A stretch of DNA of 24,000 nucleotides from Candidatus Hodarchaeota archaeon (GTDB lineage Archaea > Asgardarchaeota > Heimdallarchaeia > Hodarchaeales > Hodarchaeaceae), in assembly GCA_016839785.1 (NCBI GenBank), contig JAEOTQ010000106.1, forward strand, positions 5,535 through 29,534. Direction: 5' to 3'. Below are positions 5,201-15,424 of the stretch, piece after piece. How positions within the stretch are numbered: the first letter of the stretch is position 1; each line of letters opens with the position of its first letter. The notes under the pieces were generated by a model, which worked only from the letters and a program-made list of their open reading frames with translations, did no database searches and was not told the origin of the DNA. Position numbers and translations under genes: made by a program.

Positions 5201-6223
5201 ATAATGAGCATAGGAACTTAACCAAATCCCTGAACCATCATTATTGACAATCGTATTGTTTTTAATTATACTATAATAGCCAAAAGAACTGATCCATACA
5301 GCGGCATCGAAATTTCCGTCGAAAGTATTATTGGTTATCCAATTATTCTCCGCATTTGCCACCCAGATGGCTTGATCAAGATTTTGTGTGAAAAAATTGA
5401 ACTGAATATTGAACCAATCTGAATTAGATAATTCAATACATTGTCCAATATTGGATACAAAGAAATTATGCTCTATCGTAGCGTTGTCAGAACTGGTGGA
5501 ATATATCCCATGGTAATTAAATGAGAAATTATTATTCTTGATGTGACTAAATCTCGTACCTTGAAGATAAATGCCTCCATAGTTAGTTCCAGAAGTCTGA
5601 TGAGAAGAAATTTCGTTGTATTGTATAAGAGAGGAATCACCACTAATAACCATACCAAAATTGCCATTATTAGAAATGGTATTATTCTGGGTAATAACGT
5701 CATCACTGTAAAGGATTTCCAGGCCTGCATAGTTGTTGTTCACTAATGTATTATTTTCTATAAGGACCTGATCAGCAGCGACGAAATAAAGGTAGATTCC
5801 ACTTGAAGAGGATCCATTTACAGAAATGTAATTATTTCGAAGAATAAAATTATAACCAGTGGAACGAATCTCAATACCGTGAGTACTTGCCGTTGAGTTA
5901 GTAATGTAATAATTTTCAATAATAAAAGGTGCACTCACCGATCCATTACCCAACCATCCTTCAGAAGCAGCTTGAGTAGCAAAATCAGAGTTTCCACTAA
6001 TGTAGATGGGATTCCGAGAGGTATAGGACTGAGCTTTAAACTGTGGTAGCTTTGGAGAATCTTTTTCTATTTGTCTGAGTGGATATGCAGCGTTACTTAC
6101 TCGGATGGGTTCTAATCCAGAGTCATTTACTCTTATTTCATGAAAATTATGAATAGAACTCAAAATGATCGCTAACAAAAGTATAAAGGGTACGTAGTAT
6201 TTTTTGGAATCAACGCGGGACAT
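2237..6223 (-). CDS. Large cell-surface protein: signal peptide + NosD/CASH-type right-handed parallel beta-helix (PbH1 repeats) + 8 Ig-like repeats + Ser/Thr stalk + C-terminal TM anchor (putative adhesin/S-layer-associated glycoprotein)
   Basis: The ORF track gives 2237..6262 (TTG start). The in-frame ATG at 6223 yields a classic signal peptide (MSRVDSKKYYVPFILLLAIILSSIHNF). The beta-helix entry (NPIYISGNSDFATQAASEGWLGNGSVSAPFIIENYYI) is followed by many ~22-24-aa turns of the type NNxIxxNxxxGIxLxxSxxxxIxxN. The typical exit motif is present (GNFWLDYRGIDNNSDGIGDSPYLISG). Eight ~91-aa repeats then follow, then the stalk TTTTITSASSTSTSSSSSTSTPTPTTEVPPTTSSTS, the TM helix FGSFSLLVLGIIFAII and the tail RKKQV. 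I count about 58 N-x-S/T sequons by hand. Confidence 0.85.
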   Translation of the reverse strand: MSRVDSKKYYVPFILLLAIILSSIHNFHEIRVNDSGLEPIRVSNAAYPLRQIEKDSPKLPQFKAQSYTSRNPIYISGNSDFATQAASEGWLGNGSVSAPFIIENYYITNSTASTHGIEIRSTGYNFILRNNYISVNGSSSSGIYLYFVAADQVLIENNTLVNNNYAGLEILYSDDVITQNNTISNNGNFGMVISGDSSLIQYNEISSHQTSGTNYGGIYLQGTRFSHIKNNNFSFNYHGIYSTSSDNATIEHNFFVSNIGQCIELSNSDWFNIQFNFFTQNLDQAIWVANAENNWITNNTFDGNFDAAVWISSFGYYSIIKNNTIVNNDGSGIWLSSYAHYTIISDNIIINNTDEGIRLSSTIINSTVTNNIIKDGRYGIYGFFEDTYIANNYIENVIYNGISITWSFNSTVENNLIRNCGDYGIDFYDSGNVTVRNNTVIGCTDYGIYVGSSEPANHIYLNNFLHNRGGAINQGYSTWNNQNWDNGTHGNFWLDYRGIDNNSDGIGDSPYLISGSVSSSDNFPLMIWYSIELPPEIIDPPSNLTYEEATIGHNLTWVALDESPFMFSILVDDIPVFSNLWTSREIINYSVDGLGLGVHNITIKFIDTDSNERSDTVFVTVIDTTPPNLNSGKIFVFMEVLPDKSINWTLTDLHPWNYSIFMDSVLYANGSWTSGQTITLNVTNLPLGVFEFIIYVNDSSSNINSSTHYVVIYDGTAPVVSHPTNFTHEYGYPTIPITWIANDIHPYNFTIFVDDQVYLDGNWTSDTNISLDYSDFLSGIYNITLLIHDTSALNATSTLFLTVLPDSTPPLITSPGNKTIVETTGTVITWLVTDYNPSHYTLYEDGIVVQSDSWNSSFPIQFIIANASIGIYNYTLVVFDHSNLSLKDSVFVIVEPVKGLAINQPENITYTEGMMNNWISWTIISNKTGNYTIYQDDLPLETDDWTNSTLVNYLVDNLDPGIYNFSIFVKTTDNLTVNDTVFVFVLIDSNPPLVSEESDIFILEMSINNTLTWTVADLNPDVFFIYKNDSLALTSSWVGNESLSIRIDGLHPGVWNYTIIVYDARGLSSADTVFVLVIDVTPPIIVNSPLNQTIEETAGSELTWRAIDYYPFNYTLILANGTIITGIWGNNTWINITIPELDLGNYTYTMTFSDLFGQESQSVVTIEVIDLTPPTINPHDDEEYMEGTTSYFLNWNISDRYNGTYIIYQDGEMLTSGVWNQNSSVSIDVGNLPAGTYTFSLVVTDFNGNQAIDTVILLVKMVEITTTTITSASSTSTSSSSSTSTPTPTTEVPPTTSSTSKPKVSIGFGSFSLLVLGIIFAIIRKKQV
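2438..4624 (-). repeat. Eight tandem ~91-aa (about 273 nt) Ig-like/beta-sandwich repeats inside the surface protein (protein-level repeat)
   Basis: Track residues ~547-1275. Each unit reads roughly: PP..x5-10..(L/I)(T/S)W...D..P..Y.I(Y/F).D......W.......(I/V)......G.Y.(Y/F)......D..(G)N...D.V.V.V.D.TPP. The boundary motifs fall at residues 638-640 (TPP), 729-731 (TAP), 821-823 (TPP), ~908-912 (EPVKG), 1003-1005 (NPP), 1094-1096 (TPP) and 1185-1187 (TPP). That gives a period of 88-93 aa. Confidence 0.8.
4649..6013 (-). repeat. Protein-level PbH1 / parallel beta-helix repeat region (NosD/CASH-like) inside the surface protein
   Basis: Track residues ~84-538 hold successive short repeats rich in N, G and I. 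Examples: NNYISVNGSSSSGIYLYF, ENNTLVNNNYAGLEILYS, QNNTISNNGNFGMVISG, KNNTIVNNDGSGIWLSS, SDNIIINNTDEGIRLSS, VENNLIRNCGDYGIDFYD, VRNNTVIGCTDYGIYVGS. The repetition is at protein level only. The DNA copies are diverged. Confidence 0.75.
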
Positions 6224-6420
6224 TGGGGGACTTCCTAACGAAAAACAATTTAATAGACACAAAAGATAGTGTAATTACATCTTTTCTTCTTAATAAGAAG
6301 CACTAGATAATTTCTCCGAACGTTACCTTATTTCCACAATATTTAATTATTCGAGCAAATACTTAATTGGAAACAAGAAAATTGCCTTCAGTATTCAAGT
6401 TAACAAAAGAGTTGAGCAGT

Positions 6421-7254
6421 ATGGAGCATGAAGAAAGTAAATATGTCACTCGGGATGGAATAGACATTTTTTATCAGGTGTGGAAACCTGAAGGGACACC
6501 TAAGGGAATTGTACAAATAGTTCACGGATTAGCAGAACATGCAGGGCGGTATATGCATGTCGTTAACAAACTTGTACCACAAGGATATTTAATCTATGGT
6601 GATGACCATCGAGGACATGGACGATCAGGTGGACATAAAGGATTTGTTAAGTCAATTAATGATTTTGTACAGGATCAAAAGGAATTTACAAAGATAATAA
6701 AGGATAAAGAAGGCGCAAATTTACCTCTTTTCTTACTTGGTCATTCTATGGGATCTTTGATATCAATTCTTTACATATCTGATTCTCCTGATGACTTCAA
6801 AGGGCTTATTCTTTCTGGTACTGGATCAGCTGTAGGAGAAGGAGTGAATTGGTTTACAATAATATTAGCAAAAACAATGTCAAAAATATTACCAAAAATG
6901 ACGTTAAAAAATGAATTATCGGATGGAGTATCACGAGATCCCGCAGTAAAAGAAGCTTATAATAATGATCCATATGTATTAGACAAGATAACCACTAGAC
7001 TCGGAGCTGAAATTTTTACTGGACTTAAAGCAGCTAAAAGCAGTATTGGAAATATCAAGATCCCTATTTTAGTGCAAAAAGGTGGAGAAGATCCTTTAAT
7101 AATAAAAACAGAGGAATTGATGAAGAACGTGACTACTGAGGATTCCACCTTAAAGATGTATGAGGGATTATTTCACGAAGTGTATAATGAGCTAGAAGAG
7201 GATCGAGAAGTTGTCCTTAATGATCTAAACGAGTGGTTAAATTCTCATCTCTAA
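6421..7254 (+). CDS. Alpha/beta-hydrolase, monoacylglycerol lipase / lysophospholipase-like
   Basis: The ORF track gives 6367..7254 (TTG). The in-frame ATG at 6421 (MEHEESKY...) is preferred. The HG-x-x-EH-x-x-RY box (VHGLAEHAGRY) is typical of the MGL/lysophospholipase (PldB-like) family. The nucleophile elbow is G-H-S-M-G-S (nt 6739-6756). A candidate acid lies in GGEDP and a candidate catalytic His in EGLFHEVYNE near the C-terminus. Confidence 0.85.
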   Translation: MEHEESKYVTRDGIDIFYQVWKPEGTPKGIVQIVHGLAEHAGRYMHVVNKLVPQGYLIYGDDHRGHGRSGGHKGFVKSINDFVQDQKEFTKIIKDKEGANLPLFLLGHSMGSLISILYISDSPDDFKGLILSGTGSAVGEGVNWFTIILAKTMSKILPKMTLKNELSDGVSRDPAVKEAYNNDPYVLDKITTRLGAEIFTGLKAAKSSIGNIKIPILVQKGGEDPLIIKTEELMKNVTTEDSTLKMYEGLFHEVYNELEEDREVVLNDLNEWLNSHL

Positions 7255-7459
7255 TTTAGTGGATCTACATTAGAATCACTTCAAAAAAAATCGATATTCA
7301 CAAACCTAGCTTCTTCGCTCTCATTCTTTCTCTTTATAGAAGTATTGAGACTTAATCCAGCATTGAACTAAATTTGATAAGCACTAGAAAAGAAATTAAA
7401 ATCTAGAAAGTTAAAAAAGGTTCGTCAGAAGTATATGATTCTACTGAACAAATTGACCA

Positions 7460-8461
7460 TTGGTGAGAAAATTGGCGATTGAACCACAATATGCTATTGA
7501 AGTGAAGGGTCTTAGGAAAACCTTCGGTAAAGGGGAGAATAAAGTCGAAGCTGTACGGGGAGTCTCACTCCAAGTCAGAAAAGGTGAAATTTTTGGATTT
7601 TTAGGTCCAAACGGTGCTGGAAAAACCACAAGTTTACGAATGATGGTAGGACTACTTAATCCTAGTGCAGGAAATGTGATAATTTTAGGAAAGGATCCTA
7701 AAGAGAAACAAAATCAAGATTTTATCAAGGAAAAAATTGGGATCATCCCTCAAGAAGTCTCTCTATATTTGGAATTAACAGTGGAAGAGAATCTATGGTT
7801 TATCGCGAATGCTTATCGGGTTCCTTCAGCAGATGCAAAAGTGACGATTGATAAACTAATCAGTGATATGGGGTTAGAAGAGAAACGAAAAGCATTGGCG
7901 AAGAACCTTTCGGGAGGAATGAAGCGACGATTAAATTTAATAATGGGATTAGTGCATAATCCCGAACTAGTCCTTTGTGATGAACCAACACCTGGACTTG
8001 ATCCTCAATCACGAGTGGTTGTTTGGGAATATATCCAGGACTTACCCAAGCAAGGAAAAACGGTCATTTTAACAACCCATTTTATGGAAGAGGCTGATCG
8101 TCTTTCAGATCGGGTCGCTATAATCGACAATGGTGAAGTGCTTGTGCTCGACTCTCCTAAAGCTCTAAAAAAATCCGTTGGCGAAGGCGATCTTGTTGAG
8201 TTTATGCTTGAAAATACCGAAAAAGATCATTTGGAACAGATTGCCTCTGCTTTGAGAGAATTTAATGGAGGAAAAGCTATACAAGAAGTATACATTTCTT
8301 CTAATCGTGTGATCATGCGATCTAAGGATGTTATATCGAATCTTTCACGGATTCTGAACCATATTGAGGATCAGGGAGCAGAAGTAGAAAACATGGCTAT
8401 TCGGAATACTACACTTGAGGATGTATTTATTTCCCTCACTGGAAGAGCTTTACGTAATTAA
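7460..8461 (+). CDS. ABC transporter ATP-binding protein (ABC-2/DrrA-NatA-like exporter ATPase)
   Basis: Walker A is GPNGAGKTT (nt ~7604-7630). The Q-loop is IGIIPQE, the ABC signature LSGGMKRRL, Walker B LVLCDEPTPGLD and the H-loop LTTHFMEEA. The C-terminal ~100 aa form an accessory domain common in ABC-2 ATPases. The start is non-ATG (TTG 7460, GTG 7463 or TTG 7472), so the exact start is uncertain. Confidence 0.9.
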   Translation: MVRKLAIEPQYAIEVKGLRKTFGKGENKVEAVRGVSLQVRKGEIFGFLGPNGAGKTTSLRMMVGLLNPSAGNVIILGKDPKEKQNQDFIKEKIGIIPQEVSLYLELTVEENLWFIANAYRVPSADAKVTIDKLISDMGLEEKRKALAKNLSGGMKRRLNLIMGLVHNPELVLCDEPTPGLDPQSRVVVWEYIQDLPKQGKTVILTTHFMEEADRLSDRVAIIDNGEVLVLDSPKALKKSVGEGDLVEFMLENTEKDHLEQIASALREFNGGKAIQEVYISSNRVIMRSKDVISNLSRILNHIEDQGAEVENMAIRNTTLEDVFISLTGRALRN

Positions 8462-8466
8462 GGGAG
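8462..8466 (+). promoter_or_regulatory. Shine-Dalgarno-like GGGAG upstream of the first permease gene
   Basis: GGGAG lies 9 nt upstream of ATG 8476 and directly after the ATPase stop (8459-8461). This is consistent with operonic translation. Confidence 0.45.
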
Positions 8467-8475
8467 ATATTTTTA

Positions 8476-9846
8476 ATGTTACCCTTGGAAATTGCTAAAC
8501 GGTTTGGAAAAGAGCTCATCCGAATGCGAATTTCGCTTGTTGTCTTACTGGCTTTACCAGCATTTATGGCATTCATGTTTTGGTTCGCCTTTAATAGCGC
8601 AGGTCTTGGTTCAACAGAAACATATATCCTAGGAGTTGTAAATGAAGATGAGGGGGTTGCTGATGAATTAGCTGCATATTTTCAAGTAGTCAACAGTGTC
8701 TATGATACAGGTATCTCCAATACAACATTGACACATGGATTTGCACATGATTTCATCCAATCTTTAAAGTCAATTAATTATACAAATGAGCAGAATACGG
8801 CTGATAACATCCCAATTTTTACTATAGAAGAGTATGATACATCAGAAATAGCATTAAATAACTCTAATCCTAATGAAGATGTTGAATCTAGAGACATTGA
8901 CGCATTACTTTATTTTCCTAGAAATTATTCCAATACAACCCTTTCAGCAGTCAATAATGCGAATTTCATCCAATCAGGGCTCTATCTCGACGAAAATCCT
9001 TTTTGGGTTGGTCCCCCAATTCCAAAATCGGATAATAGTGAACTCAAAATTGTCGGAGACGAAGGTTATACTCGGTATTTAATTGTTAAAGTGATCCTGA
9101 GTAAAATCTTAACTGCATTTATGGAGAATATTCATAATTTCCAATATTCTGGCGGTAATGTTGATTATGAAATTAATTCGGTCGCACTTAAAGAATACAG
9201 CATATTTGATACAATAATGCCCGGAATCCTTGTATTTGGAATCCTTACACAGTCAGGAATGTTAGCTGCGTTTCTTGTAAGCGAGTTCGCAGAAACACAA
9301 ACCATGACTCGTGTCAGATTATCTCTCATAAAACCTTGGGAATATATTATGGGAGTTTCAATCTATCAGTTTATTGTCTCATTTTTCCAAATGGGAATTC
9401 TTTTCGTTCTGCCCATTTTATTATTAGGTTTTCGTCCTGCAGGAAGTTTAATTGAAGGATTTCTAGTACTCTTAGTAACTACCGTATTTACGACTGGTTT
9501 AGGTTTTGTATTAGCAGGGATATTCACTTCTTCTGATACTGCAGGTCAATCTTCTGGTTTTCTAATGACCCCTATTGCTTTCATGTCTGGGGCATTTATG
9601 GAGGTTCCTACAATTACTCTATTTCCCAGCGTTATCCCTACAGCTTCAGGAATTCCTCGTGATTTCATTTTATGGGATATAATACCAACAACCCATACTG
9701 TAAATGCTCTTCGGTCAATTTTATTATATGAATTTTCAGTAACTGATGTTTGGGGTGAACTCATGCTATTAATAATTCCCTCTATACTTCTTCTAGTATT
9801 TGGGATGATTTTCTATAGTAAACGACGATTTGCAGGAGATATCTAG
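8476..9846 (+). CDS. ABC-2 type transporter permease with large extracytoplasmic domain (permease A)
   Basis: TM1 is ISLVVLLALPAFMAFMFWFAF. A ~200-aa hydrophilic, sequon-bearing segment follows (aa ~41-245, nt ~8596-9210). After it come five hydrophobic helices and the conserved ABC-2 region TRVRLSLIKPWEYIMGVSIYQFIVSFFQ. The protein is paralogous to the next ORF. Confidence 0.8.
   Translation: MLPLEIAKRFGKELIRMRISLVVLLALPAFMAFMFWFAFNSAGLGSTETYILGVVNEDEGVADELAAYFQVVNSVYDTGISNTTLTHGFAHDFIQSLKSINYTNEQNTADNIPIFTIEEYDTSEIALNNSNPNEDVESRDIDALLYFPRNYSNTTLSAVNNANFIQSGLYLDENPFWVGPPIPKSDNSELKIVGDEGYTRYLIVKVILSKILTAFMENIHNFQYSGGNVDYEINSVALKEYSIFDTIMPGILVFGILTQSGMLAAFLVSEFAETQTMTRVRLSLIKPWEYIMGVSIYQFIVSFFQMGILFVLPILLLGFRPAGSLIEGFLVLLVTTVFTTGLGFVLAGIFTSSDTAGQSSGFLMTPIAFMSGAFMEVPTITLFPSVIPTASGIPRDFILWDIIPTTHTVNALRSILLYEFSVTDVWGELMLLIIPSILLLVFGMIFYSKRRFAGDI
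9834..9838 (+). promoter_or_regulatory. Shine-Dalgarno-like AGGAG plus stop/start abutment (TAG-ATG) coupling the two permease genes
   Basis: AGGAG lies 8 nt upstream of ATG 9847. The stop TAG at 9844-9846 is immediately followed by the ATG. Confidence 0.5.
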
Positions 9847-11163
9847 ATGAACTTGACCATTAGAATTTTCATTCGGTCATTCAAACAGGTCATTCGATCT
9901 CCAGCACGGCTTTCCCTCATCATAGGCTTCCCAATCTTTTTTATTATGATTTTTGCATTTATTTTTGGAGGAGGCGTTGATGAAACAACGGTATCTCTAG
10001 GATTCCTTAACCTTGATGATTCAGGACTGCTGGAATCTGATTGGGAAGAGGATTTTACTAACTTCACAGACGCGTGGGGAGATAATGATTCAATAAATCC
10101 ATTTACAGTAGGATTTGGAGAATACTTTGTTAGGAGTCTAGAAGGTCAAGCGAATTTAGACATATCTAATAGCACGTTTCGAATAGTGGAGTTCAATTCT
10201 ATAGATGAAATGCTTGTTTCTGTGCAAAGTAGGGCTGTTTCAATCGGGATTGTAATACCCAGTGATTTTTCACTCGCAGTTTTATCTGGACTTAATTCAC
10301 GTGAAACTATTCTTACTGGACAACCAATTGTGGATAATTCTTTGATCTTAAGACAAAACCTAACCATCAATATTCTTGGTGATCCAAGCTTTTTAGCGTT
10401 TCAAACTGGCCTTACAGAAGTTGAAAATGCGCTAGATAGTTTTCAATCTCAAGTCTATGGAATACAGGTTCCAGCAGGTAACTTTCAATCGGTTTTTGAA
10501 AATGTTGTAAGCTATGAATTAACCCAGTTCGACTATTTCATCTCTGGATTCTTTACGTTTGGGCTAATCCTAACTTCAAGCGGTATTGCTGGTATCATTG
10601 GTGAAGAACGGGACTATCGGACACTGGAAAGACTCAAATTAAGCCAGGTAAAACCTGCTGAATATCTCCTTGGTATCTCTCTTAATCAAATAGTCCTTGC
10701 TATTATTCAGGTTGTCATAATGTTTGGTGCAGCCTATCTTTTTGGGTTTAGAGGTCAAGGAAATCCAATTTTTGCAGCATTAATAGCAATTATTACTCTT
10801 CTTCCAGTTTTAGGATTGGCTGTATTTGTAAGTGCATTTGTACCTAATGGCCGTGATGCTAATGGAGTGATTGCAATGCTCAGTGCCCCTATAGGATTTG
10901 TATCAGGTGCATTCCTTCCTGTTCCAGAAATTCCACTAATTCAAAATCTCGTCCCTGATGGATCGGGTTCACTTCGAGCATTGCAATTATGGGATTTCTT
11001 CCCGTTTCATGCATCTACAAAAGCCATAAGGAATATCTTACTATTTGATCACTCCTTTGCCCAAATTCTGCCAGATTTATTCTTTTTGATTATTGGTGGT
11101 CTACTGTTCTTCGGTTTTGGTATGTTCTTCTTTGTTAAAAGGATATTCACCCCAGAAAATTAG
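9847..11163 (+). CDS. ABC-2 type transporter permease with large extracytoplasmic domain (permease B, paralog of permease A)
   Basis: The topology matches permease A: TM1 is LSLIIGFPIFFIMIFAFIF, the external segment spans aa ~42-228 (nt ~9970-10530), and five helices follow. Stretches alignable with permease A include LERLKLSQVKPAEYLLGISLNQIVLAIIQ vs TRVRLSLIKPWEYIMGVSIYQFIVSFFQ. A second example is VSGAFLPVPEIPLIQNLVPDGSGSLRALQLWDFFPFHASTKAIRNILLF vs MSGAFMEVPTITLFPSVIPTASGIPRDFILWDIIPTTHTVNALRSILLY. Confidence 0.8.
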   Translation: MNLTIRIFIRSFKQVIRSPARLSLIIGFPIFFIMIFAFIFGGGVDETTVSLGFLNLDDSGLLESDWEEDFTNFTDAWGDNDSINPFTVGFGEYFVRSLEGQANLDISNSTFRIVEFNSIDEMLVSVQSRAVSIGIVIPSDFSLAVLSGLNSRETILTGQPIVDNSLILRQNLTINILGDPSFLAFQTGLTEVENALDSFQSQVYGIQVPAGNFQSVFENVVSYELTQFDYFISGFFTFGLILTSSGIAGIIGEERDYRTLERLKLSQVKPAEYLLGISLNQIVLAIIQVVIMFGAAYLFGFRGQGNPIFAALIAIITLLPVLGLAVFVSAFVPNGRDANGVIAMLSAPIGFVSGAFLPVPEIPLIQNLVPDGSGSLRALQLWDFFPFHASTKAIRNILLFDHSFAQILPDLFFLIIGGLLFFGFGMFFFVKRIFTPEN

Positions 11164-11269
11164 GAAGATCATGAAACACTTAAAGGAATATTACTACTTA
11201 AATCCACTGAGGCTAAGAAAGCACTTGATGAAACAAAAACAGATGATAATTTGACAATAGGTTTTCATA

Positions 11270-12184
11270 ATGCGCCTAAGACCACCAGAAGAAACCCTAC
11301 ACTCCTGGTCCTTTCCCCATCGAATGTTTTATCAACTAATTAAACTAGTTCTCCCCAGATTTATCCGCCTCTATTTTCAGTTTGAAGTAAAAAATGTTGA
11401 ATTCCTAGAGAAGTTACCTGAAGGAGTACCAGTGATATATTGCTTTAATCATCGATCGCATTTGGATACCTTCCTTTTTGCTAGTGCGTTGGTGTATCCT
11501 TTTGGAAATAGGACCGCATGCGGATTAATGACAAATGGCAATGTAATGGAAGAAAATAAATTTTTCTATCTACTCAAGCACTTGGGAGCGTATCCTGTTT
11601 ATCCCCAGAACTCCACACCAGCTCTGGATCATACGATAAAACTCCTTGACGATAATTTAGCCGTTCTGATTGCTCCTCAGGGTAAACGAATTCCAACTAC
11701 ACCTTTAGATGATTATCACAATTTAGTCGAACAGGGAAAATCAGGAGTAGGAAGACTGGTATTAAGAAGTAAGGGTAAAATTCCAGTAGTACCTATGTAT
11801 ATTCATGGCTCTTATGAAGCACTTGCTTTTGGAAAAATGATTCCAAAAATTAAATCTTATATTTCAGTGTCAATCTGCAAACCAATTATTTTTGCTGAAG
11901 AGAGACGAGAAGATGAATGGACTGAATCTGACCTAGTATTTCATTCTAGAGCGAGGGCGATAAGCAAGGTAATTATGGCATCGATTCGAAAACAAATGCA
12001 ATTTGAGGAACAGTACTTCTTCCAAATCCTATCCCGAAAGGTACAGCTCCCCCTAGATAGAGTACATATTTCTTATCAAACTCACCCCATTGCTTATCGA
12101 TTTTTCCGAAACCTATTGCGATATTCTCCTGACCAGTTGAAAAAATGGCTCGAATGCAACCCTCAGATCAGTGAACACACATAA
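11270..12184 (+). CDS. Lysophospholipid/1-acylglycerol-3-phosphate acyltransferase family protein (PlsC/AGPAT-type, HX4D)
   Basis: The four LPLAT blocks occur in order. Block I is NHRSHLD (HX4D, nt 11450-11467). Block II-like is HLGAYPVYP. Block III is APQGKR, in the position of FPEGTR. Block IV is KIPVVPMYIHG. A ~100-aa C-terminal extension has no motif I recognise. Confidence 0.8.
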   Translation: MRLRPPEETLHSWSFPHRMFYQLIKLVLPRFIRLYFQFEVKNVEFLEKLPEGVPVIYCFNHRSHLDTFLFASALVYPFGNRTACGLMTNGNVMEENKFFYLLKHLGAYPVYPQNSTPALDHTIKLLDDNLAVLIAPQGKRIPTTPLDDYHNLVEQGKSGVGRLVLRSKGKIPVVPMYIHGSYEALAFGKMIPKIKSYISVSICKPIIFAEERREDEWTESDLVFHSRARAISKVIMASIRKQMQFEEQYFFQILSRKVQLPLDRVHISYQTHPIAYRFFRNLLRYSPDQLKKWLECNPQISEHT

Positions 12185-12301
12185 ATTACCTGTTTTGGTA
12201 CGAAAAATATCACTCATACTATAGGCAATGATATCAAAATAAATTTCCCCAAATGACTCAAGTGAATACTATGGTAAACGATTTCTTAGAACCTTAGGGG
12301 A

Positions 12302-15300
12302 TCATTGGTTATCTTTCTGACTCTTTTTAATACCAAGGGCTTCACGTACATATTCCTCAACTCTTTTATGTTGATCTTGAGGGGAAAGTTGAGTATCAAG
12401 CTTAAGAATTGAAGTGATGTTAGTTCGAAGTCTTTCAAACTTAACTGATTCTTTCATTGCGATATCATAATAAAGCTTCATATTTTCTTGCTGTGCAATT
12501 CTTAGACATTTATTAATCCAATGTTCCACTTGATTAAACTGAAATGATGCAAGGTCTATTCTTGCTCTCAACAGGTACACTTGACAGAGTTCAGAGTAGT
12601 ATTGATTGTTCTCACAGTCATCTTGCCATTTATTTAGCATGGTGAGCATTTTCTTCTTAGCTACCGGTGAAGGATTACTCAACCAGGTTTTAAATTCGGA
12701 TGCCACAAGAGCACCTTGACAGATGACTTGAAATTCCACATCTAAATTCTCATTATCTAGGGCTGTGATCCATTCTTTTTCTGCTGATCCCCAATTTTTC
12801 TCCGTTTCAGCAAGTAAGGCTTGGATCATGTGATGGAATGCAACAACAGCGGGATGCTTATACGGTGGGGTGGGAAAACGTTGAAGGATGTGGCTTTCAG
12901 GGGTCAGAATTTGTGTTTCTTTCTGCAGAAGAACTATTCTGAGAGATGTTTCAGCGACCATTCTATCGTTTTCTAATAGCTCAAAAACATCCAGAGCGGA
13001 TTCATACTGCTGGATGGATTTTAAAAATTCACATTGAAGGTAAAGGGCATTAGCTTTTGCTAGTAATGTCTTGGCATCTGTTTCAGTTTGCACTAATGCG
13101 ACATAATCAGTAAATCCTAGTTTTTGAATTTTTAACGCAGTAGGATAATCAGGAGCTTTTAATTTCGTAATCCAATTTCTTTTTTCAGTTTCTCGTCTGA
13201 TTCTGACAATAAAGGCTGCTAAGGCAATGTTGGTAATAATAATTAATAATCCTACATGAAATATACTGAAACTGATAAGCGGAAAACTCCAAAATTCACG
13301 GGGATTAGTCCCCCCTCTATATTCGTCTACATTATGAACCCAATCCCCATCTAAATCGAGTTTCGCGTCACTTGGATCTTGTGCATTAAGCCCCATTCTA
13401 AATTCCCAAACATCAGGCATACCATCAATGTCTCGATCATAAAAAGCGTAGATTTTGTCAATGTATTGAAATTCAGGACCAAAATTCATTGGATTTAGAG
13501 AACCACTCTCATTATAGTTTTGTATCCAATCACGGAAAGCCACTAATTTCAACTTTTGATTGAGATAAATATACAGAGAATCATTAGCTGCTATTTCCTC
13601 AATATTTTGGTACATCTCTCGACGAACGTCAATATCCTGTTCAATCGCTGCATCTTCTATCAGAGTGTTCAAAGATGGATTTTCATATGAGAGCATTGTC
13701 GCAAAAACACCATATTGTCCATGTAAATACGGAGCAATAAAATTGTCTGGATCTGCATAATCTGCAGCCCATCCACAATAATTAAGAGGGATTTTTTGAT
13801 GCCAAGAGACCTCATCATACTGATCCTGTTCCATGGGTTGTAGAATTGCCCTTATCCCCACATCACACATCACCAGGGAGTTAGCTAGGGATAAGTAGAT
13901 GTACGAAAGTATTTCGTTATTAACAGGATACACTAATTTAATAGTTCCTTGCCAACCAACTTGCTCAAATAGTATTCTAGCTGTTTCTAAATCGTAGGAG
14001 GGAAGAAGACCCTTTTCTGTTAGATTTTCATTATGACCAAGAATTCCCTCAGGAATGATTCCTTCCATCTGTTTCCCAATTCCATTGAGAATATTATCGA
14101 TATAAAACGAGTAATCAAAAGCACTAGCCATGGCTTTACGGAATATAACCGAAGTAAATGGATTGTTTTGACTTGCTTTTACTTCACCTTTGGCAAATCG
14201 TGATAGGAGACTCGCGTTGTAAATAGAATTTTCTGATTCATTCAGATAGATTTGGGATAGGGATTCTTTCATATTCATCCCTAGAAAGAATGTGGTAGAT
14301 GTTGGGGCGGTAAAAGTAGTTATTCCTTCATAAAGCGACTCACCTGCAGGAGTGATGATTTTATACGCATCTGGTTTTTCTACATAAACCATATCAGAAT
14401 CACCATTGATTAAATTTTGAATGCGGGTGTCATCATCTATTTCCGATCTAATTTCGATCTCCTCGACAGAATGTAAACTAAATGATCCCCACCAATTGTC
14501 ATTTTTCTGAAGAAGAATAGAATTTTCAGTTAGCGACTGTAATTTATATGCTCCAGTGCCAATTGCGTGGTTTTTCATCCATGAATGATAAGAATCACTA
14601 AAGCGATGCGATCCAGGGACTACACCAGATATTTTTGGATTATGATCACTCGTCAATCCCAATTTGGTATAATCCGAGAGGGTGGAAAACCATTTATCCA
14701 GAGGAACCATACCATACACTTTATCCCCAATAAACAATGTGTATTCCGTTGGTCGATTATCTATAACAGCTTTTGGGGAAACAGCACTTCCTACATCGAA
14801 CGCGAGAGAATTAATAAATGGTGAATATGCAGACTCAAGGTTGATTTCTAAAGTATAATCATCTACAACCACAACTCCTCCTGCATCAAGATAAGCTTGT
14901 GCTTCTGTATAATTGGGATTAAAATATTGCATATAGGTTGATCCACCCTTGATAACTTGAGCTATCATCCAAGAGGGCCCCCATGGATCGTTCATGAGTA
15001 TAGATCTATCAATAGAATATTTCATTACGTAGGCGTTAAAAACGACACCATCGTGGAATACAACGTTCTTACGAAGGTTAAAGGTATATACTCGTCCATT
15101 TGGTGAGACAGTCCATCCCGTGGCTAGTCTACCTTCAAGTTCATCGACTGAATTCCCTTTATATCCAACTAAGGATTCATATATCAATTCAATAATAGTA
15201 CTCCCAGTGGTCTCATAATTGATCCCTGGATCTAAGGATTTAATGGCATTTGGTATACTCAGTGTTTCCCAGATAAATTTATCGGGATTCTTTAGTTCCC

Positions 15301-15412
15301 CATTTGCCCTAGAAGCGTGTATTACTGCTGTGGAAGGTTGTATGGCAATTAAAATACTCAGAATCAAAATTGGGAGAATAAATCTAAGATATAGGCCATT
15401 CCTAGCAGTCAT
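12302..15412 (-). CDS. Fusion protein: signal peptide + family-5 (Opp/Dpp/Nik-type) solute-binding domain + acidic Ca-binding-like (TSP3-like) motif + single TM helix + ~300-aa cytoplasmic TPR-like helical domain
   Basis: The ORF track gives 12302..15421 (GTG). I prefer the ATG at 15412 because that GTG sits inside a GAGGTGA Shine-Dalgarno-like element 6-8 nt upstream of it. The signal-like N-terminus is RNGLYLRFILPILILSILIAIQPSTAVIHA. The family-5 SBP hallmark is LATGWTVSPNGRVYTFNLRKNVVFHDG. See the sub-features for the C-terminal parts. The frame is uninterrupted throughout. Confidence 0.8.
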   Translation of the reverse strand: MTARNGLYLRFILPILILSILIAIQPSTAVIHASRANGELKNPDKFIWETLSIPNAIKSLDPGINYETTGSTIIELIYESLVGYKGNSVDELEGRLATGWTVSPNGRVYTFNLRKNVVFHDGVVFNAYVMKYSIDRSILMNDPWGPSWMIAQVIKGGSTYMQYFNPNYTEAQAYLDAGGVVVVDDYTLEINLESAYSPFINSLAFDVGSAVSPKAVIDNRPTEYTLFIGDKVYGMVPLDKWFSTLSDYTKLGLTSDHNPKISGVVPGSHRFSDSYHSWMKNHAIGTGAYKLQSLTENSILLQKNDNWWGSFSLHSVEEIEIRSEIDDDTRIQNLINGDSDMVYVEKPDAYKIITPAGESLYEGITTFTAPTSTTFFLGMNMKESLSQIYLNESENSIYNASLLSRFAKGEVKASQNNPFTSVIFRKAMASAFDYSFYIDNILNGIGKQMEGIIPEGILGHNENLTEKGLLPSYDLETARILFEQVGWQGTIKLVYPVNNEILSYIYLSLANSLVMCDVGIRAILQPMEQDQYDEVSWHQKIPLNYCGWAADYADPDNFIAPYLHGQYGVFATMLSYENPSLNTLIEDAAIEQDIDVRREMYQNIEEIAANDSLYIYLNQKLKLVAFRDWIQNYNESGSLNPMNFGPEFQYIDKIYAFYDRDIDGMPDVWEFRMGLNAQDPSDAKLDLDGDWVHNVDEYRGGTNPREFWSFPLISFSIFHVGLLIIITNIALAAFIVRIRRETEKRNWITKLKAPDYPTALKIQKLGFTDYVALVQTETDAKTLLAKANALYLQCEFLKSIQQYESALDVFELLENDRMVAETSLRIVLLQKETQILTPESHILQRFPTPPYKHPAVVAFHHMIQALLAETEKNWGSAEKEWITALDNENLDVEFQVICQGALVASEFKTWLSNPSPVAKKKMLTMLNKWQDDCENNQYYSELCQVYLLRARIDLASFQFNQVEHWINKCLRIAQQENMKLYYDIAMKESVKFERLRTNITSILKLDTQLSPQDQHKRVEEYVREALGIKKSQKDNQ
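12305..13204 (-). other. Cytoplasmic ~300-aa helical, TPR-like domain of unknown function
   Basis: Residues 740-1039 have a K/E/Q/L-rich composition with a single isolated sequon, in contrast to the ectodomain. Helical-hairpin-like stretches include AKTLLAKANALYLQCEFLKSIQQYESALDVFELL, HPAVVAFHHMIQALLAETEKNWGSAEKEWITAL and YYSELCQVYLLRARIDLASFQFNQVEHWINKCLRIAQQ. I see no kinase, HAMP, MCP, GGDEF or DNA-binding motif. Confidence 0.5.
13205..13291 (-). other. Single predicted transmembrane helix separating ectodomain from cytoplasmic domain
   Basis: Residues 711-739 read WSFPLISFSIFHVGLLIIITNIALAAFIV. They are followed by RIRRETEKR, a positive-inside signature. Confidence 0.7.
13301..13438 (-). 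other. Juxtamembrane acidic D-x-D-G repeat pair resembling bacterial/archaeal thrombospondin-type-3 (TSP3)/dockerin-like Ca-binding motifs
   Basis: Residues 662-707 read RDIDGMPDVWEFRMGLNAQDPSDAKLDLDGDWVHNVDEYRGGTNP. This matches the recurrent pattern D-x-D-G-(D-G)-hPDxWE...GLNP.DP.D...D.DGD....N..EY..GTNP seen in many secreted prokaryotic proteins. I recognised the pattern from memory. Confidence 0.55.
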
Positions 15413-15417
15413 TTGGT

Positions 15418-15424
15418 TCACCTC
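15418..15424 (-). promoter_or_regulatory. Shine-Dalgarno-like GAGGTGA upstream of ATG 15412
   Basis: The reverse strand reads ...GGTTTGAGGTGAACCAAATGACT. GAGG is followed by 8 nt and then ATG. Confidence 0.5.

Follow-up and report, generated by a model that had tools for sequence, protein, structure and literature searches.

The LplT-Aas system of Gram-negative bacteria joins a transporter to an acyltransferase of family PF01553 for the reacylation of lysolipids. We analysed a 24,000-nucleotide stretch of DNA (the window; positions 5,535 to 29,534 of contig JAEOTQ010000106.1) from a Candidatus Hodarchaeota archaeon, in which a gene for a monoacylglycerol lipase (MGL)-like hydrolase, three genes for an ABC-2 exporter and a gene for a PF01553 acyltransferase follow one another. 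A sequence-only reading had proposed that these genes form a unit for deacylation, reacylation and export. LplT-Aas works in the way so proposed, but its transporter is an MFS flippase and it includes an acyl-ACP synthetase module, whereas the window has an ABC-2 exporter and a lipase instead. Comparison with related genomes indicated that the five genes are probably three independent functional units, juxtaposed by a recent local rearrangement in this lineage.

How an archaeal host came to give rise to the ester lipids of eukaryotes is under debate, and Hodarchaeales have been proposed as the closest relatives of eukaryotes. A dedicated, conserved locus for ester-lipid remodelling and export in this order would have offered a strong lead. 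Asgard archaea are already known to carry PlsC-like genes (PMC6431249, PMC13400652, PMC8813620). Homologues of PlsC and PlsY in Asgard metagenome-assembled genomes (MAGs), Heimdallarchaeota included, were described by Villanueva et al. (2017), as that work is cited in PMC6431249. Coleman et al. (2019), who also reported them, judged them to be bacterial acquisitions that are unlikely to take part in membrane synthesis (PMC6431249). A 2026 study revisited the Asgard PlsC and PlsY proteins and pointed out that lipidomics of cultured Lokiarchaeia had revealed archaeal lipids only (PMC13400652), and ester-lipid genes are mosaically distributed in Asgard archaea (PMC8813620, PMC12993045). No paper combining Hodarchaeales with acyltransferases was found in our literature search. 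The features of the locus are as follows.

6367..7254, plus strand: MGL-like alpha/beta serine hydrolase (Hydrolase_4), from a PF12146 match; likely start ATG 6421
7255..7459, no strand: 205-bp spacer between hydrolase and ATPase, from the sequence
7460..8461, plus strand: ABC ATPase of the DrrA/ABC-2 (type V, ABCA-like) class, from PF00005 and DrrA1-3_C
8476..9846, plus strand: ABC-2 permease 1 (P1), ABC2_membrane_3, from Pfam and the transmembrane (TM) pattern
9847..11163, plus strand: ABC-2 permease 2 (P2), ABC2_membrane_3, a paralogue of P1, from Pfam and the TM pattern
11164..11269, no strand: 106-bp spacer between P2 and acyltransferase, from the sequence
11270..12184, plus strand: divergent acyltransferase of the glycerol-3-phosphate acyltransferase (GPAT)/lysophospholipid acyltransferase (LPLAT) superfamily, Asgard-specific clade, from PF01553 and a fold search
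12302..15421, minus strand: SBP5-TM-TPR protein, outside the proposed module, from SBP_bac_5 (1.4e-58)

The coordinates of the open reading frames (ORFs) agreed with the earlier description of five consecutive plus-strand genes separated by 205, 14, 0 and 106 bp. The motifs listed at that time (HG...EH..RY and GHSMGS in the hydrolase, HX4D and further LPLAT blocks in the acyltransferase) were present in the translations. The shared strand is in itself unremarkable: because three of the five genes make up one exporter, just three units are co-directed, which is expected by chance in about 1 of 4 cases.

To examine conservation of the arrangement, 24 genomes from the order and 83 from the class were searched for the acyltransferase, the hydrolase and the two permeases, and the loci were then compared. 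Twenty named Asgard loci, 12 metagenome loci and the contexts of three hydrolase orthologues were added, and neighbourhood counts for the acyltransferase family refer to 33 loci unless another total is given. The direct junction between exporter and acyltransferase was found at one of the 33 loci only, the window itself. In genome G052, the ATPase, P1 and P2 were separated from the acyltransferase by a radical SAM gene, a GNAT gene, two unknown genes and TetR; a methyltransferase and SBP5 came after the acyltransferase, and there was no hydrolase orthologue in the genome. G053 had the hydrolase and ATPase on one contig, ATPase-P1-P2 followed by a homologue of a gene of the G052 insert on another, and SBP5 with the acyltransferase on a third. 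The G054 locus held, in this order, hydrolase, MFS, GNAT, SBP5 and acyltransferase genes, and the exporter orthologue was absent from the genome. In G049 (93% complete) the acyltransferase was divergent from SBP5 and neither a hydrolase nor an exporter orthologue was detected. Presence and absence of the three units were uncoupled across G049, G052 and G054, whose completeness is 89-93%, and each of these genomes is without one or two of the units.

More distant comparisons gave the same picture. Exporter and acyltransferase of G048 lay on separate contigs with flanks long enough to exclude adjacency. In the closed genome G057 (CP070695) the exporter was located at 3.555 Mb, the acyltransferase orthologue at 4.451 Mb and the hydrolase at 4.483 Mb, placing the exporter at a megabase-scale distance from the others. 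The units of G055, G062 and G065 were on different large contigs or far apart. Two metagenome contigs with acyltransferase orthologues of 71% identity showed no cluster, and none of the 12 metagenome family loci contained the hydrolase or ABC-2 permeases. Neighbourhood conservation, the check that the sequence-only reading had named, thus revealed neither conserved adjacency of the five genes nor co-occurrence across related genomes. Since the linkage is absent in relatives and the units are uncoupled, the adjacency in the window appears fortuitous by the criterion of that reading, and the proposed unit of deacylation, reacylation and export was not upheld.

The sole recurrent neighbour of the acyltransferase was the SBP5-TM-TPR gene (7 of 33 loci), which is on the opposite strand in the window. 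The orientation of this pair flips between convergent and divergent (window 11270-15421; L020-L023, L025, L068). An enrichment of ABC transporters near the acyltransferase family was considered and rejected: an ABC ATPase occurred within 8 kb in 7 of 21 loci, against about 28% expected from the 85 ABC domains in the 4.04-Mb MAG of the window (one per 48 kb). Acyltransferase neighbours in Thor-, Hermod- and other Hodarchaeales genomes had no common theme and included an M24 peptidase, AFOR, S-adenosylmethionine (SAM) methyltransferases, a PEMT/ICMT-like protein and a helicase. The PEMT/ICMT-like membrane methyltransferase (L027:7078-7626 in G058; PF04191, 2e-11) divergently adjoins an acyltransferase orthologue, and in G052 and G065 the orthologues have soluble SAM methyltransferases as flanking genes.

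The inner three genes are predicted to encode a self-contained ABC-2 (type V) unit. The earlier claim of a complete exporter was confirmed, with the ATPase-P1-P2 trio intact at all 14 loci examined. Its neighbours varied (a TPR protein at five of the loci and peptidases, regulators or transporters at the others), and no lipid genes were consistently adjacent at the 14 loci. Beta-oxidation genes located 6-10 kb from the exporter in G057, G058, G051 and G062 were considered as a lipid-related conserved context; they were rejected as functional evidence because they fall within a single synteny block common to these genomes, in which unrelated genes intervene. The ATPase matched PF00005 (114.6 bits, 6.9e-33) and carries a DrrA C-terminal domain (DrrA1-3_C), and its score for TIGR01188 (drrA) was 289 bits, just below the cut-off of 312. 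The GTG one codon after 7460 may be its start, since the TTG at 7460 is not conserved in G053. Both permeases exceeded the cut-off for ABC2_membrane_3 (PF12698; P1 7.2e-28, P2 5.1e-33). In each of them a loop of about 200 aa that contains five N-x-S/T sequons separates a single TM helix at the N-terminus from a bundle of TM helices at the C-terminus. The P1 loop was external according to TM prediction. P1 and P2 share 30% identity, and the start codon of P2 abuts the stop codon of P1.

The DrrA-like ATPase with its C-terminal regulatory domain is common to the window and to described ABC-2/type V exporters (DrrAB, YbhFSR, ABCA), as is the permease topology of TM1, large ectodomain and TM bundle. 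The window exporter differs from these in having two distinct permease genes with one ATPase gene. It would operate as an ATPase dimer with a P1/P2 heterodimer bearing glycosylated ectodomains. The permeases matched no solved structure by sequence (phmmer of P2 against the PDB gave no match), and the best PDB matches of the ATPase were the nucleotide-binding domains (NBDs) of ABCA1/4/7/3 and bacterial 4yer. When summed over two NBDs, the match to the eukaryotic lipid transporters ABCA1, ABCA4, ABCA7 and ABCA3 reached 2e-83; per domain, the bacterial ABC-2 ATPase 4yer outscored the ABCA NBDs. G053 carried the permease pair twice on short contigs (C83 and C106; L012, L013), with 78-83% identity to the permeases of the window, which could reflect a duplication or a strain mixture. 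A 111-aa ORF in G065 (L026:6947-7282, contig C9), containing the N-terminal part of an ABC ATPase only (41% identity to the window ATPase), sits two genes upstream of the acyltransferase orthologue and resembles a gene remnant.

The spacing of the genes is consistent with this division. The gaps flanking the exporter (205 and 106 bp) contrast with those inside it (14 and 0 bp), and AT-rich elements resembling TATA boxes are present in both flanking spacers, 23-27 bp upstream of the respective start codon. The 205-bp spacer, nearly identical in the 94% relative L051, is long enough for a promoter of its own. Its G053 counterpart holds a run of 11 T; such T runs terminate archaeal transcription. 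The 106-bp spacer has ATAATTT about 23 bp upstream of the acyltransferase ATG and would be compatible with a promoter of its own and a leaderless mRNA. Separate promoters for the flanking units would fit these features.

The hydrolase was identified by a strong match to PF12146 (Hydrolase_4; 230 bits against a cut-off of 27, E=2.8e-68) and by full-length alignment with human MGLL (5e-44) and M. tuberculosis MGL (2e-42). The Ser of GHSMG, the Asp and the His of the triad and the HG oxyanion motif were in register with human MGLL over residues 26-292. The HG motif, the GHSMG elbow and the triad are common to the window protein and the MGLs (human MGLL, M. tuberculosis Rv0183-type and bacterial). 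Because the relatives are uniformly 277 aa long, the start is most probably ATG 6421, which yields 277 aa, and not 6367. The score for PldB (lysophospholipase L2, NF008019) was 49 bits against a cut-off of 362, and those for other named NCBIfam equivalogs were likewise far under their cut-offs. The protein has neither a signal peptide nor a TM segment and is predicted to be cytoplasmic; its family is widespread in Asgard archaea and sulfate-reducing bacteria. It would cleave a single acyl ester, putatively of a monoacylglycerol or lysolipid-like substrate, and most likely would feed scavenged fatty acids into beta-oxidation.

Several observations weigh against full independence of the three units. 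Adjacency of hydrolase and exporter was retained in three close relatives (window, L051 and G053), and partial arrangements occur in the nearest relatives G052 and G053. Hydrolase and acyltransferase families were within 8 kb of each other at 3 of the 33 loci. These represent two independent events in different paralogue clades, one in the window/G054 lineage and the other in a different paralogue pair of Hodarchaeum mangrovi (L033), where the two neighbouring genes point away from each other across a 174-bp gap. With 1-2 hydrolase copies per 4 Mb, chance alone would account for about 0.1-0.2 such loci. Further, a third-clade paralogue on contig C76 of the MAG (L011:1902-7425; 39% identity to the window acyltransferase, flanked by two GNAT genes) has at a distance of 0.6 kb the genes for a thiolase and for a FadB-like 3-hydroxyacyl-CoA dehydrogenase/enoyl-CoA hydratase fusion, and FadB is within 4.2 kb of an acyltransferase paralogue in G060 and G061. 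Acyl-lipid metabolism is thus a plausible common theme.

These contexts would be explained if hydrolase and acyltransferase were a loose pair for acyl-ester turnover, with the exporter between them by accident; examples are the removal and re-attachment of acyl groups on a lipid-like acceptor or the salvage of exogenous acylglycerols. G054, which keeps both genes on one contig but has no exporter, is in line with such a pair, as are the two independent adjacencies and the position of paralogues near beta-oxidation genes. However, 30 of the 33 family loci had no hydrolase within reach, and no hydrolase orthologue was found in G049, G052, G059, G060 and G061, all of which carry the acyltransferase. 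Hydrolase orthologues with 74% and 69% identity were followed by SBP5 or GNAT, and the adjacency estimate (p of about 0.01) is uncorrected for some 15 families of neighbouring genes that might equally have attracted attention. We therefore consider this pairing unlikely. The data are suggestive of a loose link between the acyltransferase family and acyl-CoA or acyl-ester metabolism, which is kept alive here, whereas the five-gene module is not supported.

The 304-aa acyltransferase matched PF01553 with 48.7 bits (gathering cut-off 23; 8.7e-13) and contains the motifs NHRSHLD (HX4D), PQGKR and IPVVP. In an alignment of 33 family members, the NH-x-SHLD, PQG-x-R and PVVP-type blocks were invariant and the C-terminal helical region was conserved. 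Motif I was complete, with N60, H61, S63, H64, L65 and D66 unchanged in all members. Motif III reads APQGKR, with P136, Q137, G138 and R140 invariant and Gln in place of Glu (FPEGTR) family-wide. The arginine of PlsC motif II (G-x-x-F-I-D/R-R) binds the acceptor phosphate. It is absent from the window protein, where the segment reads LGAYPVYP (consensus GAFPVYP) and the residue aligned with the Arg of T. maritima GVFLDR is not basic. As this arginine is missing and motif III has the form PQGxR, the acceptor may be other than lysophosphatidic acid. A weak PlsB match at motif I was obtained with NCBIfam, and TIGR00530 (PlsC/AGPAT) gave 20.9 bits against a cut-off of 102.95. The gene assignments of the sequence-only reading were correct at the superfamily level, but the term PlsC-type was too specific in view of the lost arginine, the Gln for Glu and this low score. 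Judged from its sequence and predicted model, the protein is a member of the PF01553 superfamily and not a demonstrable PlsC.

The fold pointed in the same direction. The single sequence matched nothing in the PDB by phmmer; with the family profile, T. maritima PlsC (5KYM) was best at E=0.006, and human GPAT1 followed at 0.059. The AlphaFold model (pLDDT 90.9) gave Foldseek probabilities of 1.00 to GPAT1, plastid GPAT, PatA and LpxM. The best global overlap was with human GPAT1 (TM-score 0.55), followed by plastid GPATs (0.49-0.50) and then PatA and LpxM. The protein lacks TM segments; it begins with an amphipathic helix, and a helical region of about 80 aa extends it at the C-terminus. It shares with bacterial PlsC/AGPAT (5KYM) the PF01553 domain, HX4D, motif IV (PVVP), the amphipathic helix and the absence of TM segments. 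However, the match to 5KYM is marginal, the motif II Arg and the lack of additional C-terminal helices distinguish 5KYM from the window protein, and 5KYM was not among the significant Foldseek matches. The overlap with GPAT1 (8E4Y) and plastid GPAT (1K30/8IA1) covers about 300 columns including the C-terminal helices, and GPAT1 has the same HRSH-x-D type of motif I. Identity to the GPATs is only 16-17%, the window protein is much smaller than GPAT1 or E. coli PlsB, and the phosphate-binding residues of motifs II and III are not conserved in it. As a peripheral-membrane enzyme it would use the HX4D dyad, presumably with acyl-CoA as the acyl donor and a hydroxyl group as the acceptor.

All named relatives of the acyltransferase were from Asgard archaea. 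The nearest, with 70-72% identity, were from Heimdallarchaeota B3_Heim and from Hodarchaeota/Hodarchaeales MAGs including Hodarchaeum mangrovi; relatives from Thor-, Hermod- and Odinarchaeota came next at 42-45%, and the closest non-Asgard sequences recovered were from Acidimicrobiia at 23-28%. In the family tree the window gene grouped with those of G052 (YT2_004) and G053 (YT1_021), then with G049 (B3_Heim) and G054 (MAG_8), and then with G048 (H. mangrovi). Hodarchaeales genomes carry 2-3 paralogues of the family each, and the MAG of the window has four PF01553 genes. Two of these, on contig C8, scored 35.5 and 57.6 bits for TIGR00530, higher than the window gene and still below the cut-off, and the pair also scored better against the AGPAT and Aas models. 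The window gene belongs to a well-conserved, multi-copy Hodarchaeales acyltransferase family of GPAT fold that is distinct from canonical PlsC.

The window lies on contig C60 of a MAG of 4.04 Mb (G000; 248 contigs, 84.5% complete, about 36% G+C). No archaeal 16S rRNA gene was present in the assembly, so the identity of the host rests on protein relatives and lipid genes. The MAG encodes a geranylgeranylglyceryl phosphate (GGGP) synthase and glycerol-1-phosphate dehydrogenase-like proteins. The sequence-only reading had made its argument conditional on an archaeal host; this premise holds, given these genes and the Asgard-only named relatives of the acyltransferase, and the host is an Asgard archaeon of the Hodarchaeales type. 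In the 84.5%-complete MAG, searches yielded no match for PlsY and no convincing ketoacyl synthase as condensing enzyme of type II fatty acid synthesis (FAS-II), although absence is not proven for either at this completeness; PlsB was not found, and GpsA-like matches were weak only. Nine matches to acyl-CoA dehydrogenases, together with a thiolase and a FadB-like fusion, pointed to a capacity for beta-oxidation.

Given this host, the acyltransferase family may perform an acylation that is novel for archaea, perhaps together with the MGL-like hydrolase; such joint action is entertained because the hydrolase recurs beside the acyltransferase in two paralogue pairs. The reaction could be the missing first acylation of glycerol phosphate, or the esterification of an ether lysolipid (GGGP) leading to mixed ether/ester lipids. 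If true, the archaeal lineage that is closest to eukaryotes would have a step of ester-lipid metabolism, but we judge this to be distinctly improbable. Least probable of all, and very doubtful, is a five-gene module expressed as one unit in which the hydrolase deacylates, the acyltransferase reacylates in the manner of a Lands cycle and the product passes to the ABC-2 exporter for flipping or export: the genes are close together on one strand, partly so in the nearest relatives, and each protein class acts on lipids elsewhere (strong MGL homology, an ABCA1/3/4/7-like ATPase, an LPLAT fold), but the junction is confined to the window, the units are dispersed or missing in other genomes, the exporter has non-lipid neighbours elsewhere, the long spacers and the T run suit separate promoters, and no PlsY/PlsB or FAS-II was found to supply ester lipids.

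The juxtaposition of what are probably three independent units is specific to this lineage, and the locus should not be cited as an ester-lipid module. The main value of the analysis lies in this negative result and in the characterised Asgard-specific acyltransferase family of GPAT fold. This family, the more AGPAT-like gene described next and the presence of beta-oxidation with FAS-II and PlsY not found together make Hodarchaeales genomes a source of a concrete enzyme set to assay.

In addition, every genome contains one copy of a more AGPAT-like gene, sometimes paired with an MFS transporter. In the MAG of the window, an arrangement resembling LplT-Aas was found outside the window on contig C8 (C8:21681-24025; L018:13682-16029), where an MFS_1 gene is directly upstream of a 324-aa PF01553 gene on the same strand. 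The best NCBIfam matches of this acyltransferase were Aas-type acyl-ACP--phospholipid O-acyltransferases. Its adjacency to the MFS gene was retained in G049, G052 and G053, whereas distant Hodarchaeales have lost it; the 324-aa type was single-copy in 21 of the 24 genomes of the order. On the same contig (L018:3101-4455), a heliorhodopsin gene (PF18761, 8.7e-84) adjoins and slightly overlaps a Staygreen-family gene (PF12638, 2.6e-46), with an AMP-binding acyl-activating enzyme and a 235-aa PF01553 gene nearby.

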